Source of the DNA: Candidatus Versatilivorator sp.
GTDB taxonomy: Bacteria; Acidobacteriota; Terriglobia; Versatilivoradales; Versatilivoraceae
DNA: 64,000 bases
Assembly: GCA_965207735.1 (NCBI GenBank)
Contig: OZ242296.1
Span: 4,928,001 to 4,992,000, forward strand
Direction of reading: 5' to 3'
Made by a program: the position numbers and the translations under genes. Position 1 is the first letter of the stretch; every line of letters starts with the position of its first letter. The notes below the pieces were generated by a model. The model was not told the DNA's origin. It saw nothing but the letters and a program-made list of their open reading frames with translations, and did not search any database. Shown in pieces: positions 10,991-21,081 of this stretch.

Positions 10991-12868
10991 TTACTTGGAT
11001 AGGACGGTGGAGGACTGCTCCTTCAGCGGCACCCGAAAGCCCACCCTGGTTCGGCCGGCGGCAGACTGCACCTCGAGGGTGCCCTGCTCCCCGTAACAGA
11101 GCCGCAGGCGGCGCCGGACGTTCTCAAGGCCCTGTCCGTTCTCCCGGTGTCCGGAGGATTGAAACCCGGGGCCGTCGTCGGAGACCGTGACCCTGAGGGC
11201 GCCGTCTTCCAGGGCGGCGTCCAGCCCGATGCTTCCCCCCTCGGCCTTCCTGCCGATCCCGTGCTTGATGGCGTTTTCGACCAGGGGCTGGATCGAGAGG
11301 GCCGGGATTTCCACCCGGAGGGCTTCCGGGCTGACATCGATCCGGGTAGACAGGCGGTCCCCCAGCCGCAAGCGCTCCACCTCCAGGTAGGCCTGCACGG
11401 TTCGGAGTTCCTCTTCCAGCGGCACCTGCTGGCGATTCCCCTGCAGCAGGTAGCGAAAGATCTCGGCCAGGTTGACCACGGTGCGCCGTGCCTCGGCGGC
11501 CGCTCGCGGAATGAGGCCGTAGAGCGCATTGAGGGAGTTGAAGAGGAAGTGGGGATTGATCTGCGCCCGCAGGGCCTGCAGCTCCGCCCGGGTGGCCAGA
11601 CCCTGCAGCTCGGTGCGCCTCCGGCGAGCCACTTGCGCCTCCACCTCGGTGGCCAGGCGGTTCAGATCCTCCAGGTCCTGGCTGAGGTAGCGTCTCCCCG
11701 CCTGCCGCCCGCTCAAGAGCAGTACCTGGCGGTCTCCCTCGGCAAACCGCAGGGGCACCGCCACTTCGGCCCATCTCCTGGAGCCGAGTTCCGCACTTTG
11801 GCCACGGTCCAGAACCTGCGGGCCGATTCCCTCCCTGACAACAGGCCCCGGTGTGTCGCTCTCCGCCAGCAGCTCCGCGCGGCCGGCCTTGGCGAAGGCG
11901 GCCACTTCCCGGCCCGCCTGCTGCAGAAACACCTCTTCGCTCCCGGCGCCGGCCAGCGCCTGGAGCTTCTGCAGCGCCGCACTCAGGCTCCCCCTGCGAA
12001 AGACCCGGCGCTCCACCCATCTCTGAAGGTGGCCGCGCAGCTCGGAAAATCCGAGCAGGGCCAAGCCCACCCCGGTGATGGTCACCGCCAGTGAGAATCC
12101 CCCTTGGGCGGAGGCGGGATCGAGCTCCAGCCGGCTCAACAGCCCGATTAAGCCCACCGCGAATACCACCGCCAGCAGCGCATTCCCCAGAAAGCGAACG
12201 AAGACGTCCAGCAGCAGAAAGCGGTAGTCCTGCAGCAGCACCACCAGGGCCACGGGGATGCCGACATGGTGCAGGAGGAGTTCGTGAGCCCAGGCATCGG
12301 GTCCGTGGACCTCCCCGAAGTGGAGGAAGGAGACGGCAAACAGGAACAGGGCCATGGCGCCCAGCATGCGCATGCCCGCCCCCTTGCGCCGCTGCTGGTC
12401 TTTCCAGAGGACAAGGGCCGCCAGCACGGCCAGGCCGCCGAATCCGAAGGTGATCAGCCGGAGCCCGAACTGATGGGAAGCCCCCTCGGTGCCGAAGATT
12501 TCAGCCAGATGGATGCCGCAGGCCAGCAACCCCACTCCGTAACCGGTCCAGCTCAGCAGCGAACGCCGTGAGCCCATCGAAACGTGCAGCAGCACACTCG
12601 GCAGCAGGCTCAAGGTGGCAAAACTTCCCGCCACCATCACACGGCGCGCCAGGCTGGGTGAATCCGCCGCCGCCAGCACTCCCAAGGAACCGGCGTTCCA
12701 CAGCAGGGCCAGCAGGGCCGCCCCGCCCGGCAGCCAGATGTCCCCGCGGAGCGACCGGCGCCGGCTGCGCCAAAGGAAGTAGAGAAAACCGCTGAAGGCC
12801 GCCAAGCCAAAGATGTGGCCCAGCGTATTGACCAGCAGCGGCAGATGAATGGTGGATTCATTGTCCAT
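10991..12868 (-). CDS. LytS/YehU-family membrane sensor histidine kinase
   Basis: Multiple N-terminal TM segments; ALRAQINPHFLFNSLN, QPLVENAIKHG, VSDDGPG and GQGLENVRRRL motifs. Confidence 0.92.
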   Translation of the reverse strand: MDNESTIHLPLLVNTLGHIFGLAAFSGFLYFLWRSRRRSLRGDIWLPGGAALLALLWNAGSLGVLAAADSPSLARRVMVAGSFATLSLLPSVLLHVSMGSRRSLLSWTGYGVGLLACGIHLAEIFGTEGASHQFGLRLITFGFGGLAVLAALVLWKDQQRRKGAGMRMLGAMALFLFAVSFLHFGEVHGPDAWAHELLLHHVGIPVALVVLLQDYRFLLLDVFVRFLGNALLAVVFAVGLIGLLSRLELDPASAQGGFSLAVTITGVGLALLGFSELRGHLQRWVERRVFRRGSLSAALQKLQALAGAGSEEVFLQQAGREVAAFAKAGRAELLAESDTPGPVVREGIGPQVLDRGQSAELGSRRWAEVAVPLRFAEGDRQVLLLSGRQAGRRYLSQDLEDLNRLATEVEAQVARRRRTELQGLATRAELQALRAQINPHFLFNSLNALYGLIPRAAAEARRTVVNLAEIFRYLLQGNRQQVPLEEELRTVQAYLEVERLRLGDRLSTRIDVSPEALRVEIPALSIQPLVENAIKHGIGRKAEGGSIGLDAALEDGALRVTVSDDGPGFQSSGHRENGQGLENVRRRLRLCYGEQGTLEVQSAAGRTRVGFRVPLKEQSSTVLSK

Positions 12869-13193
12869 GGATCGGGCCTGCCCCCATCAGTATACGTTCT
12901 GAACGGGCATTTTCCATTGGCTCTGCGCCGTTGGTGCATAATAGGAACTTTGGCAGGAAAACCGGTACGCGTCTCGATCGCCCGACAGGGGGCGGCGCTC
13001 GAGTCATCCGGCAGCCGGCAACGACATGCCATGGCTCCGGGAGCCGATGCCGACCGCTCCGGCTCGGGTCGTCACGACGGGTCCCGGGTTATCCGCCCGC
13101 GGTTCGGATGGGGCCGCCGATGCGGCAGATCCTCCCACCGGTCGAAACCCACTCTGCCTTGAACCCGGGATTGGTTTATAAGAACGAGCAACT

Positions 13194-13955
13194 ATGCTCA
13201 GGAAACCCCTTCGAACGCTGGTGGTGGACGACGAACCCGTATCCCGGCGGGTGCTGCTGGAGGACCTGGCCGAGATGGAGGACGTCTCGGTGGTCGGTGA
13301 AGCCGACAACGGCCAGCGGGCGCTGCAGCAGATCGAGAAGCTCCGGCCGGACCTGGTCCTGCTCGACATTCAAATGCCGGTCATGGACGGCTTCCAGGTG
13401 CTCAGCCAACTCCAGGGGCCGCTGCCATCCATCATCTTCGTGACCGCTTACAGCGAGCATGCCCTCAATGCCTTCGAGGTCGGGGCAGTCGACTACCTGC
13501 TGAAACCCGTCAGTCCCGATCGTCTGAACAGAGCGGTGGAGCGTGCCTGGGCCGCCCTGGGGAACCGGCTGGAAGCCGTGGAACGGGTGGCCTTAACGCT
13601 GGGTGCGGCCGAGGCCGGGAAGAAGCGGCGAGTAGTGAAGATCGCCGCCAGGAAAGGTGAAGACTACTATCTGCTGGATATGGATGAAGTCTTTGCTTTT
13701 CAGGCCGATCGCGAAATCGTCTGGATCAGGACCCGCGACAAGAGCTACATGGCCGCTCAGACCCTCCAGGCCATCGACGATCGCCTGGGCGGAACCCAGT
13801 TTCAGCGGGTCCATCGGAGCGTTCTGGTCAACCTGGACAAGGTCCGCAAGATAAGCACTCTCAGCAGCCAGCGCTGGTTGCTGACTCTGACCAACGGACT
13901 GGAATACACCGTGAGCAAGCGGCAGACTCCCCTGCTCCGGGACCTGCTGCGGTAA
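13194..13955 (+). CDS. LytTR-family response regulator
   Basis: REC domain (VVDDE, LLDIQMP, FVTAY, DYLLKP) plus LytTR motif FQRVHRSVLVN; divergent from the kinase. Confidence 0.93.
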   Translation: MLRKPLRTLVVDDEPVSRRVLLEDLAEMEDVSVVGEADNGQRALQQIEKLRPDLVLLDIQMPVMDGFQVLSQLQGPLPSIIFVTAYSEHALNAFEVGAVDYLLKPVSPDRLNRAVERAWAALGNRLEAVERVALTLGAAEAGKKRRVVKIAARKGEDYYLLDMDEVFAFQADREIVWIRTRDKSYMAAQTLQAIDDRLGGTQFQRVHRSVLVNLDKVRKISTLSSQRWLLTLTNGLEYTVSKRQTPLLRDLLR

Positions 13956-14025
13956 GCCGCGTTGCTCACCGGCGCCCGGGTAGTGGAACAAGCGGGAGGA
14001 TTGCTTCCGCCGCCTATGCAGCTAG

Positions 14026-15137
14026 CCCGCATTTCTCAGTGCGCCATGGAAAGGCGCCTTCTTCCAACGGGTGCGAAACCCGTCCAACAACTGTCGCTCC
14101 GGTTGGTAGCAGTCAGGGCGGATCATGGAGGTAACGATATGGTCTGAAGCCCTCTGGTGTCAAAGGGCCGCTTAAGGCGGTTCAGCGAGCATGCGGGCCG
14201 GAACGCGAGTGAACGTCGAGCAGGCCTCGAAACGGGCAATGCGGGGGCCGACCCACCTGAGAAATGGGGAAGGCCGAAGACGGAGGGGGAAGCGAGCGAC
14301 GCGGGCACCCCTTTGGACCCGCCGGGGTAGTGGCGCTGGCACGCATGGAAGGGGAAGAAGGCAGCAACATGGGAAGCCCTGTGGGTGGTGAGGCACGCAC
14401 CGAACCGGAAGCTCGCGAGAGTCAGTCTAGGCCGACAGGGTGGCGGAGAGGCCTGTAGTACCGGAGAAGCCGGGTAATACCGGTGGAGGGAAGGGGCCTC
14501 AGGTGAGGAGCGGTGACCGAAGGGGGAAGGGTCCCGGGAGTGGCGAAAGCCTGAAACCCCGACCAAAAAAGGGCCGGAGACTCCGGAAGCATCACATGCA
14601 AAAGTGAAAGGGTCGTCGGAGGAGGACGGCGTCGTCAGGGCATCAACAGGCCTGGCGGCAACCCGGGAGCGGAAGTGGATGGAGTGGGGGACGGGTGCCA
14701 ATCCCATAGGAGTCGTCCACGGATGCGAGCGGGGACCTGTGTGCGAGACGCATGATCCCACTGGAGAGCCGAGATGCGGGAAAACCGCACGTCCGGTTCG
14801 GAGAGCGGGGACTGGAAACGTGATAAGGGAGCCGGACTGAGGCCCGAAGCGAAAGCGACGGAATAGCCACCGGACCCTATAGTCAACGCGCCAGTCCTCG
14901 ACTCTACCCAGGGGGCATGATCATGGCGCAGGATTTTTCCCTTCAGCGCGTGCTCGCGACCGAAGAGCGTAGCGGTCACTACGCGCGAGGGAGCATGTGC
15001 GCGCTGAAGGGAAAAAGACAAGCCAGGGCATGCCCAGCGCCGTCTGTTACCCGCAAACCCTTACCATGGAGCCAATCAAAGTACTGAAGATGAACTACTT
15101 TTCGTCATGGCACCAGCGACCTGGTGAGAGATGCGGG
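14026..15137 (+). mobile_element. 243-bp IS1380-type MITE interrupted in its left TIR by a group II intron
   Basis: Flanked by CTAG at 14022-14025 and 15138-15141. Removing 14039-14907 leaves exactly 243 bp, matching the intact inverted copy at 20839-21081. Confidence 0.92.
14039..14907 (+). ncRNA. ORF-less group II intron (IIB-like bacterial class), 869 nt
   Basis: 5' GTGCG. Domain V GAGCCGAGATGCGGGAAAACCGCACGTCCGGTTC at 14766-14799. Domain VI with bulged A14901 and 3' end CTCGACTCTAC. EBS1 loop TGAGAAA (14258-14264) complementary to the 5' exon TTTCTCA. Confidence 0.92.
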
Positions 15138-15295
15138 CTAGGGGGTTGAACTGACCTGTTCCAATGGGCTGCCGCCCCGACTTACGCCCACGGTTAAGTG
15201 CGGACGCCGCCTTGGCGGCTTATTGGCCCCCAGAGTGGCGCCCCGGGGGATGATCATTGGAAAATGCCGGCCCCTGTCCCAGCCAGGGATTCCAT

Positions 15296-17552: not shown

Positions 17553-19250
17553 CCCGCATTTCTCACCAGAGTTCGCACAGGAGCGGTAAAAGGGGCCATG
17601 GAGGCATTTGAGGCCGAGTTTAACAACGTTGGTGGCTGGATCGGTAGGCAAAGGCCAACAGCGGAGGCTTCTGAGGCTCTCCGAGGAACCTCAGGCGGCA
17701 TTTTCCCTCGAAAACAGCGACACCTCTGCCATCGGGCCTGGTGGCCGCGTCTTCAAGGGCCAGGAGTGACGGTCGGGTCAGGGCACCTCAGGGCGGCAGG
17801 TGAGCCCAAGCGATGCGGAACTCCCTCTGGTAAGGACATCCGGAAGCCATGGCGACCTTGATGCGACGGACCGAGATGGTGACCTGAGCGCCGATCTTGA
17901 GCAGTTTGAGTCTGATGGAACCGACGGTGGCCCGGGCCAGGCAGGTGGATTGCAGCGCCCGCCGGCGCAAGCCCTCCACCAGCACATAGGCGAAAGAGGT
18001 CATCAGGAGCCGGAGCTGATTCGCCCGGAAGGAGTGGGTGGAGGTGCGATCGGCAAACAGGTCGAGTTGCTGCTCCTTGATGCGGTTTTCCATCTCACCG
18101 CGGGCACAGTAGATCTTCTCATAGAGGAACTGGGCGGGGTAGTCCTGGACCGACAGAGAGGTGACGACGAAGCGGGGGTTGGGGCCGCGGGGCAGGACCT
18201 CGGCTTTGGCGACCAGGCGGCGCTCGTGGGACCAGCTCTTGTGAGTGCGGTAGGAGAGGTCGGTGAAGATCCGGGCGGGCTGCTGTTGCTGGTCTGAGAG
18301 GGCCTGGGCCTGAGCCAACTCGGGGGCGATGGCGTCTTGGAGGCGGGAGTTGCGGGCCAGGCCGAAGAGATAGTCGACCTGATGCTGCTCACACCACCCC
18401 ATCAGCTCCTCACGGGCAAAGCCGGAGTCGGCCCGCAGCAGGATCTTGACCTGAGGCCAGACACGCCGTAGGCGGGAGACGATGCGCTGGACCTGCTCCA
18501 GAGCGCCGGCGGAGGCATCGATGTTGGCGGGTCTGAGCAGGGCCGAGAGCAGATGGCGGCCCGAGAAGATGTAGAGGGGCAGGTAGCAGTAGCCTCGGTA
18601 GTAGCCGTGGAAGAAGCGGTCCTCTTGTTCCCCGTGGAGGGGATCGTCAGTGGCGTCGAGGTCGAGGATGATCTCATCGGGGGGTTGGGGATGGGCTTGC
18701 AGAAACAGTTTCACCAGGAGGGCTTGCAAGGCCTCGGGGTCGTGGTCAATCTTGTGGTAGCGGGTGGGGCCTTGGGTGGGGGCGTGTTCGAGTCGGTTGA
18801 GGGTGCTCTTGCCTGCCAGGGGAGGCGAGTCGCCACGACGGCCTTTCTCTGAAAACAAGGCCATGAGGGGATCGTGACGGAGTTGGTCGTGGTCGATGAG
18901 ATCCTCGTAGCCGAGGGCGATGCCACGGATGCGCTGAGCGATGAGGGTGCGCAGGCTGTATTGGGTCCGCTTGGGGTCGCGGTGATCGGTGAAACAGTCG
19001 GCCACCTGGTCGGAGAGAGATAAGCCCCGATCCACCCGGCGCAACAGCAGGGAGCCGGCATCGGAAGTGATGGGACCGCCGTCGAAATCAGCCACCACGC
19101 GGCGGCGGCCGTGGGGTTCAAACTCCAGGGGTTTGGTGTTACACTGTGTCGGCATCGGTTCTCCTTTAAGAATCTGGTTAACTCCTTAGACAAGAGTATT
19201 TTACCAGATTCCGAGAACCGATGCTTCCTACCTCTGGTGAGAAATGCGGG
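17553..19250 (-). mobile_element. IS1380-family insertion sequence
   Basis: TIRs CCCGCATTTCTCACCAGAG / CTCTGGTGAGAAATGCGGG; flanked by CTAG at 17549-17552 and 19251-19254. Confidence 0.95.
17788..19155 (-). CDS. IS1380-family transposase, 455 aa
   Basis: ITSDAG, GYEDLIDHDQLRHDP, ILDLDATDDPLHGEQE, LRADSGF and YCARGEMENRIKE motifs. Confidence 0.95.
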   Translation of the reverse strand: MPTQCNTKPLEFEPHGRRRVVADFDGGPITSDAGSLLLRRVDRGLSLSDQVADCFTDHRDPKRTQYSLRTLIAQRIRGIALGYEDLIDHDQLRHDPLMALFSEKGRRGDSPPLAGKSTLNRLEHAPTQGPTRYHKIDHDPEALQALLVKLFLQAHPQPPDEIILDLDATDDPLHGEQEDRFFHGYYRGYCYLPLYIFSGRHLLSALLRPANIDASAGALEQVQRIVSRLRRVWPQVKILLRADSGFAREELMGWCEQHQVDYLFGLARNSRLQDAIAPELAQAQALSDQQQQPARIFTDLSYRTHKSWSHERRLVAKAEVLPRGPNPRFVVTSLSVQDYPAQFLYEKIYCARGEMENRIKEQQLDLFADRTSTHSFRANQLRLLMTSFAYVLVEGLRRRALQSTCLARATVGSIRLKLLKIGAQVTISVRRIKVAMASGCPYQREFRIAWAHLPP

Positions 19251-19254
19251 CTAG

Positions 19255-20834
19255 GAGTCTGCGCCGCAGAAAACCCGGGCAGGGCTGAATGATACAATAA
19301 CGGGCTTAGAGACATCATAGGAGGTGGTGGATGGGGACAAGGTTTCGCCCGTATCAGCCGAAGCAACTGTTGATGTTGCCGCCGGACCTGGGGGAGTGGG
19401 TACCGGAAGGGCACTTGGCCCATCAGGTGAGTGAGTTGGTGGATGGGCTGGAGTTGAGAGCGTTTTACCGGCCCTATGAAGAGGACGGGAGGCGCAACTC
19501 GCCCTACGAGCCGCGGATGATGGTGAAGGTGTTGATTTACGCCTATGCGACAGGGGTGTTCTCGTCGCGCAAGATCGCGAGGAAGCTGGAGGAAGACGTG
19601 GCGTTTCGGATGCTGGCGGCGGGGAACTTTCCGCAGCATCGGACGTTGTGCGAGTTTCGCCGCCGGCATTTGAAGGACTTCAAGCAGCTGTTCGTACAGG
19701 TGGTGAGCTTGGCGCGGGAGATGGGGATGGTGGGGTTGGGGCGATTGGGGATCGACGGGACGAAGGTGCGGGCGAACGCGAGCCGGCGCAAGGCGATGAG
19801 CTATGGTCGGATGAAGGAGCGGGAGCGGCAACTGAAGGCAGAGATCCATGAGTTGTTGAAGAAGGCGCGGCGGGAGGACCGGGAGGAAGATGAGCGGTAC
19901 GGGGAAGACCGGCGTGGGGATGAGTTGCCCGAGGAGTTGCGGCGGCGGGAGGACCGGCTGGCGGCGATCGAGGCGGCCAAGCAGCGGCTGGAGGCGGCCC
20001 AGCGGGAGGCCGATGAGGAGCGGGGGCGCAAACCGGGACAGGACCGCAACCCGAAAGCACGACGGCCCTACAAGCGGGCCTACGGAGAACCGGAGGAGAA
20101 GGCGCAGAGTAATTTCACCGATCCGGAAAGCCGGATCATGAAGACTTCCACCGAGGGGTTCCAGCAATGCTACAACGCGCAGGTGGCGGTGGACGGAGAG
20201 CACCAGATCATTGTGGCCACCGAGGTAACGGCGCAGGCGAGCGATCAGGGGCAGATGATGGAGTTGCTGGAGGAGGTGGAGGAGAGCTTCCAGGAGATAC
20301 CGAAACAGGTGCTGGCGGATGCGGGCTACTGCAATGAGGAGGACTTGCAGGCCCTGGAAGAGAGAGGAGTGGACGGTTATGTTGCGCTGGGGCGCGAGGG
20401 GAAGCGGGCGGTAGAGATCGATCCCAGGAAGCATCCGGCCAAGAGTCGTATGAGGAAGAAGCTGGCCAGCCTAGCCGGTCAGGTGGAGTATCGGCGGAGG
20501 AAGTGGATTGCCGAAGCCCCTCATGGGTGGATCAAGGAGGGGCTGGGATTCCGACGGTTCAGTCTGCGGGGCTTGCAATCAGTGCAGGGGGAGTGGGACT
20601 TGGTGTGTCTGGCCCTCAACATCAAGAGGATGAGTGCGTTGATGGCGGCCTGAAGCAAGGGATTTCCACCCAATACCCAGGGCCACGGAGGTCCTCAACC
20701 GCCCATTGTGGGAGCCCACAGGACGCTTGAGACTCTATCAACGCCCAAGTGGCTCCCAAGCACTCCTTGGAACCGGCCTTGCGCAGTAGCCTCTCGCTCT
20801 TGAACTTTCCGAAATCGTCCTGCGGCGCAGACTC
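19255..20834 (+). mobile_element. IS1182-family insertion sequence
   Basis: Perfect 15-bp TIRs GAGTCTGCGCCGCAG / CTGCGGCGCAGACTC; flanked by CTAG at 19251-19254 and 20835-20838. Confidence 0.95.
19331..20653 (+). CDS. IS1182-family transposase, 440 aa
   Basis: GVFSSRKIAR, IDGTKVRANAS, NFTDPESRIMK, YNAQVAVD, LADAGY and GFRRFSLRGL motifs. Confidence 0.95.
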   Translation: MGTRFRPYQPKQLLMLPPDLGEWVPEGHLAHQVSELVDGLELRAFYRPYEEDGRRNSPYEPRMMVKVLIYAYATGVFSSRKIARKLEEDVAFRMLAAGNFPQHRTLCEFRRRHLKDFKQLFVQVVSLAREMGMVGLGRLGIDGTKVRANASRRKAMSYGRMKERERQLKAEIHELLKKARREDREEDERYGEDRRGDELPEELRRREDRLAAIEAAKQRLEAAQREADEERGRKPGQDRNPKARRPYKRAYGEPEEKAQSNFTDPESRIMKTSTEGFQQCYNAQVAVDGEHQIIVATEVTAQASDQGQMMELLEEVEESFQEIPKQVLADAGYCNEEDLQALEERGVDGYVALGREGKRAVEIDPRKHPAKSRMRKKLASLAGQVEYRRRKWIAEAPHGWIKEGLGFRRFSLRGLQSVQGEWDLVCLALNIKRMSALMAA

Positions 20835-20838
20835 CTAG

Positions 20839-21081
20839 CCCGCATTTCTCGCCAGGTCGCTGGTGCCATGACGAAAAGCAGTTTATCTTCAGTACTTTGA
20901 TTGGCTCCATGGTAAGGGCTTGCGGGTAACAGACTGCGCTGGGCATGCCCTGGCTTGTCTTTTTCCCTTCAGCGCGCACATGCTCCCTCGCGCGTAGTGA
21001 CCGCTACGCTCTTCGGTCGCGAGCACGCCCTGAAGGGAAATATCCTGCGCCATGTTCATGCCCCCTGGTGAGAAATGCGGG
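20839..21081 (-). mobile_element. Intact 243-bp MITE with IS1380-type TIRs
   Basis: TIRs CCCGCATTTCTCGCCAG / CTGGTGAGAAATGCGGG, CTAG on both sides, no transposase. Inverted homolog of 14026-15137. Confidence 0.93.

Follow-up and report, generated by a model that had tools for sequence, protein, structure and literature searches.

The closest described relatives of the intron reported here fall into three groups. The two inverted repeats of ISRm17 both serve as homing sites for RmInt2 of Sinorhizobium meliloti GR4; the authors of that work point out, in the available text of these papers, that an IS offers two sites on opposite strands, which doubles the targets and secures a lagging-strand site; control of IS spread has also been proposed (PMC4615759, PMC5894124). 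In Thermosynechococcus elongatus, ORF-less TeI3 introns are mobilized in trans by TeI4 proteins of relaxed specificity, according to the available text (PMC2882425). Introns of the IIE/IIF type are described, in the portion of the source at hand, as carrying alpha-prime at the end of the DId stem-loop and a 5-nt loop in domain V (DV), and are expected to splice via EBS1 (PMC3753933). Bacterial ORF-less introns as a whole are called rare and usually paired with a related reverse transcriptase (RT) in the accessible part of a review (PMC4424553).

The window analyzed here is a stretch of 64,000 nucleotides from Candidatus Versatilivorator sp. (contig OZ242296.1), in which a group II intron lies inside the terminal inverted repeat (TIR) of a MITE. 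Judged from sequence comparison, it is very probably an IIE/IIF-like ORF-less intron whose EBS1 pairs with TIR bases 7-13, common to IS1380 elements and MITEs, and which has spread recently by endonuclease-independent retrohoming, with RT provided in trans by full-length relatives.

Data and Searches

The genome to which the window belongs (G000) was searched with BLAST using the intron as query, and full-length matches of at least 99.5% identity were counted as copies. Junctions were checked in contig sets, of which X1 and X2 represent one sample, possibly the source of the genome. Covariation was assessed with introns of G000 and of fetched loci that passed a strict motif filter. Trees were built from the first 330 nt and the last 150 nt of 22 introns, 8 of them ORF-less.

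The Intron and Its Host Element

The coordinates of the intron and its surroundings are collected in Table 1. The 5′ end conforms to GUGYG and the 3′ end to AY, and two Rfam models that the original prediction had named for scanning matched above their gathering cut-offs, group-II-D1D4-4 at 14065-14208 (81.5 bits, cut-off 49) and Intron_gpII at 14764-14907 (41.2 bits, cut-off 40). The D5-D6 region folds with z = -4.8 (0 of 200 shuffles equally stable), and the triad, the loop and the bulged A are all present. The predicted 869-nt group II intron with domains V and VI is borne out by its ends, the Rfam matches and this fold, and the placement of alpha-prime at the tip of the DId stem-loop and the 5-nt DV loop are IIE/IIF features. 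No RT domain was detected within the 869-nt copies (of 19 RVT_1 matches, not one falls in such a copy), in agreement with the claim that the intron is ORF-less; by eye, short stretches of domain IV resemble both ends of an RT frame. The proposed EBS1 loop TGAGAAA, closed by a CCCA/TGGG stem, is indeed the exact complement of TTTCTCA at the end of the 5′ exon. The domain-I stretch 14225-14345 folded alone is matched in stability by shuffles (z 0.37), and the EBS1 assignment therefore rests on covariation rather than on folding energy. A promoter scan returned a single sigma-70-like site, in antisense orientation.

Table 1. Features of the intron, its host MITE and neighboring elements (window coordinates).
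Position	Strand	Feature	Evidence
14022..14025		Left target-site duplication CTAG of the MITE	
14026..14038	+	Outer 13 bp of the MITE TIR, 5′ exon; IBS1 at 14032-14038	
14039..14907	+	ORF-less group II intron, 869 nt, ends GTGCG...ACTCTAC	
14093..14099	+	Putative alpha element, complementary to alpha-prime	Sequence, kept in alignment
14252..14268	+	Id3 hairpin with EBS1 TGAGAAA at 14258-14264	Alignment, covariation
14269	+	G, candidate EBS3, unsupported by covariation	
14294..14300	+	Alpha-prime, tip of the stem-loop after the EBS1 hairpin; IIE/IIF-like placement	Alignment, fold, available text of PMC3753933
14500..14760	+	Domain IV without RT ORF (approximate bounds)	Probable, by eye
14766..14799	+	Domain V; AGC triad 14767-14769, 5-nt loop GAAAA 14780-14784	Rfam, fold
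14802..14905	+	Domain VI, long, bulged A at 14901	Fold
14908..15137	+	Remainder of the MITE, 3′ exon	
15138..15141		Right target-site duplication CTAG	
17553..19250	-	Autonomous IS1380-family element, 1698 bp, both ends empty	
19255..20834	+	IS1182-family element between CTAG duplications, linking IS1380 to the intact MITE	
20839..21081	-	Intron-free MITE copy, 243 bp	

The intron splits the MITE TIR between bases 13 and 14. Its excision in silico restores, as had been predicted, a 243-bp element between CTAG duplications, 234/243 identical to the reverse complement of the intact copy. The far TIR of the occupied MITE has one change inside IBS1 and is unoccupied. Empty targets were likewise confirmed at 17553, 19250 and 21081; the 20839 end of the intact MITE reads ...CTCG. 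Every coordinate in the original prediction held. The IS1380 element encodes a transposase at 17788-19155 (NF033539, 410.6 bits, cut-off 180) and possesses TIRs, and 19 of the 20 IS1380 copies in the genome are flanked by an exact 4-bp target duplication. The MITEs, with 35 full copies, are non-coding and have a 17-bp end in common with IS1380, whose transposase presumably mobilizes them.

Several features of the neighborhood may be recorded here. The segment 17549-21085 is a chain of IS1380-CTAG-IS1182-CTAG-MITE, and for 7 of the 28 intron-bearing elements of the genome an IS1182 end is the immediate upstream neighbor, so that the two IS families use a common CTAG site and stack. Shorter MITE derivatives of 130, 155 and 165 bp are also present in G000, as is a 38-bp minimal MITE composed of two TIRs with an exact CTAG duplication (contig C1, intron-free coordinate 2306943). 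Upstream, 10991-13955 encodes a LytS-like sensor kinase and a LytTR response regulator; the MITE begins 70 bp past the stop of the regulator in the same sense, and read-through could therefore transcribe the window copy of the intron.

Copies and Targets in the Genome

G000 contains 28 full-length copies of the intron, all of them following TTTCTCA and preceding CC, which supports the claim of TIR-specific homing. The more detailed expectation that every flank would read TIR followed by CCAG held for the 5′ side, with the exact 13-mer at 27/28 copies and one change further out at the remaining one, but CCAG itself followed only 23/28. Hosts were 15 of the 35 full MITEs (end A 4, end B 11), 6 of the 20 IS1380 copies (right end 4, left end 2) and 7 shorter or lone ends; the picture of a three-tier parasite thus applies to the copies in MITEs, but the intron also enters autonomous IS1380 elements directly. 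No element in G000 was occupied at both ends. The majority sequence is carried by 21/28 introns, whereas the MITEs are separated from one another by a median of 9 bases (595 pairs), and occupied MITEs are spread among empty haplotypes. Because near-identical introns reside in divergent MITEs and occupy either end of MITE and IS alike, the insertions are, as far as sequences tell, recent and independent.

One full-length MITE (C1:572744-572986) ends in the TIR 13-mer followed by GTGC instead of CCAG, likely a scar left when an intron was deleted across a microhomology of 3 bases. In X1/X2 the unique left flank (depth about 5) extends 11 bases into the intron, the core of which has a depth of 223-242, consistent with many intron copies; a junction bridge of 31 bases was not found in the X1/X2 DNA contigs. 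Relatives of the intron occur in the RNA contigs, one of which spans the TIR-intron 5′ junction, and a splice, lariat or circle joint was absent from the four RNA contig sets.

EBS1 Covariation and Other Pairings

All 28 copies pair with their 5′ exon at 7/7 positions of EBS1. Across 88 distinct EBS1/exon pairs of 18 EBS1 types, among which kin are not independent and the types share TG.., pairing was 6.4/7 with the own exon vs 3.7/7 across types. Two sister families in G000 follow other targets. One comprises 13 RT introns with EBS1 TGTCTTT, inserted in a tandem repeat between ..GAAGGGGCA and C; the other comprises three elements between ..GTATTACA and TTGGG, of which an RT intron and an ORF-less intron carry EBS1 TGTAATT. 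The third GTATTACA target, at C1:4260992-4261108, holds an internally deleted intron of 117 nt in which the first 84 nt run directly into the final 37 nt of the ORF-less type, and this target sits in a repeated GC-rich palindromic element. The tandem repeat hit by the 13-copy family (about 9 copies of it at C1:408900-411500, L032) has a period of about 180 bp, is A-rich with CACGAAG motifs, and also receives IS1380 insertions at CTAA/TTAG.

No covarying EBS2 was found among the introns of G000 and related introns. Two GCGGG/ATGCGGG stretches complementary to the TIR were rejected as candidates, one being a stem arm with compensatory changes in the sister families, the other (GCGGG beside alpha-prime) matching CCCGC here and staying unchanged when targets change. 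The candidate EBS3 was likewise discarded: relatives differ in the +1 exon base, yet the G never changes. Weighted by family, 5′ exons were enriched for T at -16, A at -15, C at -13 and C at -12 (0.51-0.69), positions that in TIR targets correspond to the target duplication plus the first TIR bases, and the protein may read this distal TA-n-CC motif.

Replication-Fork Bias

With origin and terminus inferred from dnaA (3.54 Mb) and the skew maximum (0.73 Mb), 24/28 copies read in the direction of the fork (p 1.8e-4). Cumulative GC skew is reversed over about 520 kb at C1:3984693-4507577, a recent inversion or a misassembly; when this stretch (3.98-4.51 Mb) was treated as inverted, 25/28 copies were fork-directed (p 2.7e-5), so that 3-4 copies lie on the opposite strand. 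Copies that read along fork movement entered the lagging-strand template. The other members of the intron family in G000 are fork-oriented in 14-15 of 17 cases, and 49% of long ORFs genome-wide are co-oriented. Among exact ends followed by CC, occupation was 25/63 (plus one scar) in the fork orientation vs 2/81 in the opposite one. Transcription was rejected as the source of the bias, with the upstream ORF in the same sense at only 13/28 copies by crude ORF calls. The bias matches endonuclease-less retrohoming as in RmInt1/RmInt2.

Related RT Introns as Probable Source of Protein

G000 encodes 15 related RT introns, 14 with an open frame; an ORF-less intron and related intact RT introns thus occur in one genome. 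The RT-coding sibling with the same EBS1 that the original prediction called for was found at G000:5004992-5006987, the only one of the 15, in the left TIR of a diverged IS1380. Its 456-aa frame passes TIGR04416, and the domain scan recovered RVT_1 and GIIM only, with no match to an endonuclease domain. Its domain I is 95% identical to that of the ORF-less intron and its 3′ part is not cognate: BLAST of the ORF-less intron against the RT introns of G000 stops at base 475, with about 82% identity in D5, and domains IV and V-VI differ from those of all RT introns in the genome. The pattern of copies suggests mobilization in trans by a sibling RT.

In a congeneric genome (G011), the 9 intact RT introns share EBS1 TGTTAAT, and a lone TGAGAAA-type RT turned up, truncated at 316/456 aa, yet TIR-intron junctions amount to 13. 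A non-cognate RT would therefore be a plausible driver of the ORF-less intron there.

Probable Exchange of Domain I

The two ends of the introns have different histories. In the tree of the last 150 nt the 8 ORF-less introns form one clade (support 100/99), while in that of the first 330 nt they fall among RT introns of the same target and require 7 changes. A constraint keeping 7 ORF-less introns together was rejected by the first-330-nt data (AU p 7e-103), also after removal of the EBS1 hairpin and of two divergent rows (AU p 1e-50). An ORF-less copy at G000:1134708-1135573 has a domain I 98% identical to its RT target-mate and 87% to the window intron, and switches to the ORF-less type in a common 11-nt stretch at the end of domain I. 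As the ORF-less introns, drawn from several genomes, are one clade in domains V-VI and domain I tracks RT introns of the same target, targeting modules have likely been swapped repeatedly between the two kinds by recombination. One locus (L197) combines an RT frame, 83% identical to the sibling RT, with a 3′ end of the ORF-less type, which indicates exchange in the opposite direction too; direction and mechanism are proposals here.

Congeneric Genomes and the Wider Clan

TIR-intron junctions numbered 13 in G011, 8 in G009 and 16 in G005, with none in G004, G008 and the controls, and the ORF-less body is full length in 5/13 congeneric genomes. In G011 one 242-bp MITE (L234) contains an 866-nt intron in each end, and together with the copies in G000 this identifies the intron as TIR-homing. 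The ORF-less body also occurs in two genomes of another family (75-79% identity; 909 nt at L059, 865 nt and 75% identical at L200). D5-D6 matches were present in 10/401 genomes, only L197 having an RT frame. A metagenome pattern scan for an RT-coding parent of the ORF-less 3′ body gave one locus, without RT.

A genome scan with the sibling RT yielded 72 loci kept from 267 stretches (70-94% identical) in MAGs of Acidobacteriota, Alphaproteobacteria, Gemmatimonadota and Dehalococcoidia, the closest in Ca. Versatilivorator. Another target is a 2.09-kb IS1634-family element, which introns with EBS1 TGTTAAT enter at one end or the other, 13 bases in (L128, L130, L134, L136), and two Gemmatimonadota loci adjoin IS1380 transposases (L166, L172). 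Many other related RT loci are located within or close to different mobile genes or to housekeeping genes (62/125 flanking ORFs scanned). The idea that the whole clade specializes in TIRs was rejected, an inverted target copy (at least 14/18) within 3 kb downstream being present at only 10/52 RT loci with both ends located; TIR use in the clan is common, not universal. Head-to-tail tandem copies of related RT introns were also seen (L211/L227, L153, L161, L162, L165, L174).

Effect on the Host Elements and Alternative Explanations

IS1380-family transposases accept IR-like ends, according to the available text of PMC9330008. TIR bases 14-17 are conserved at 97-99% over 108 ends and later bases diverge; the conservation favors impairment of ends split by the intron. 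Later moves have left the fork bias in place, which counts for immobilization, and an identical 1,112-bp intron-plus-MITE unit at G000:5027596-5028707 and 5213340-5214451 hints against it. This is the only identical MITE pair among the 595, with the intron at the same end and different flanks at the two sites; two independent insertions into sister MITE copies would give the same picture. Splitting of the TIR likely lowers transposition of the host, and the immobilization envisaged in the original prediction would go beyond this. The identical unit could also be read as a sign that copies multiplied mainly as passengers, the intron having entered one or few MITEs or IS and the composites having transposed or spread by gene conversion, and a second pair occupied at the same end, with 2 differing bases and one member off-strand, as well as the intact outer 13 bp and duplications, would fit this. 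However, four types of end and 7 others are occupied, the occupied MITEs are scattered among empty haplotypes, and later random transposition would erase the fork bias; passenger spread as the main route is disfavored and, in our estimate, quite improbable.

Still less credible is a dead or splicing-only relic with copies from an era when the intron had its own RT. The RNA contig sets without processing joints and a 3′ half for which G000 now has no cognate RT intron agree with such a relic, but every one of the 28 copies lacks an ORF and has the same body, 21 being identical, insertions are found in IS1380 copies that are themselves 100% identical and are therefore recent, and the same body recurs among the congeneric genomes and in another family. 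For the discordance between domain I and domains V-VI, assembly chimeras, or repeated ORF loss with 3′ homogenization, would be unlikely substitutes for retargeting. Near-identical repeats misjoin easily, the trees give no direction, and L197 implies exchange both ways; against this, the same mosaics recur in several copies, in several single-contig genomes and at sites matching their own EBS1, and the switch near 1135573 falls within the 11-nt stretch. Retrohoming with RT in trans draws on one target in 28/28 copies, covariation, near-identical copies in divergent hosts, lagging-template bias, endonuclease-less RT siblings and discordant trees.

Proposed Mechanism and Comparison with Known Systems

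Under retrohoming in trans, the intron would be transcribed by read-through from flanking DNA, splice and form an RNP with a sibling RT, and reverse splice into the exposed lagging-strand template, where nascent lagging-strand DNA would act as primer. The protein would contact the distal TA-n-CC motif, and the TIR-specific domain I would have been gained by recombination with an RT-coding intron. We extend this tentatively, to a model that we regard as somewhat doubtful: the ORF-less chassis (domains II-VI) might persist class-wide without RT, being retargeted by whole domain I swaps from co-resident RT introns, and the RT might read the TA-n-CC junction, so that the clan hops between IS1380 and IS1634 ends at the same offset between bases 13 and 14 and acts as an RNA-guided transposon brake.

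With 28 insertions and more than 100 empty sites in one genome, this is a high-copy natural case open to direct tests of fork bias, of target rules and of how IS movement is affected. The exchange of domain I, if true, is a bacterial instance of ribozyme modularity in action and accounts for the survival of protein-less introns after their parent is lost.

TIR homing and ORF-less mobility in trans are both already published, and their combination in one element is found here. What is new is the proposed retargeting of ORF-less introns through a natural swap of domain I with RT-coding ones, which we did not find in print: in the open-access literature searched, neither a group II intron within an IS1380 TIR or a MITE nor such recombination between bacterial introns was reported, and the available text of PMC8643678, PMC12584367 and PMC4853749 holds nothing on TIR targets.

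As far as the available descriptions go, the likeness to RmInt2 lies in the endonuclease-less protein, the use of left and right IS inverted repeats and the lagging-template bias; the tandem copies of related RT introns also resemble RmInt2, reported in tandem. RmInt2 is a class D/IIB3 intron with its own RT, 7 copies and a tested EBS2, whereas the window intron is ORF-less and IIE/IIF-like, has 28 copies in IS1380 and MITEs, and has no covarying EBS2. The idea of the original prediction that the intron would gain target sites through IS transposition had already been published for RmInt2 (PMC4615759, in its available text). For IIE/IIF introns an apparent EBS2-IBS2 duplex appears in the accessible text of PMC3753933, and the GCGGG of the window intron, which matches CCCGC, does not covary. 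Like TeI3, as depicted in the text at hand (PMC2882425), the lineage is an old ORF-less one that outnumbers the RT introns and comprises families with different EBS. Family F4 of T. elongatus inserts into the IS200-type ISEL1 at a conserved position, which that text does not call a TIR, and the TeI4 driver proteins, unlike the sibling RT here, carry an endonuclease domain. Retargeting of TeI3 is there ascribed to EBS divergence, whereas in the lineage of the window domain I tracks RT introns of the same target, which points to recombination.
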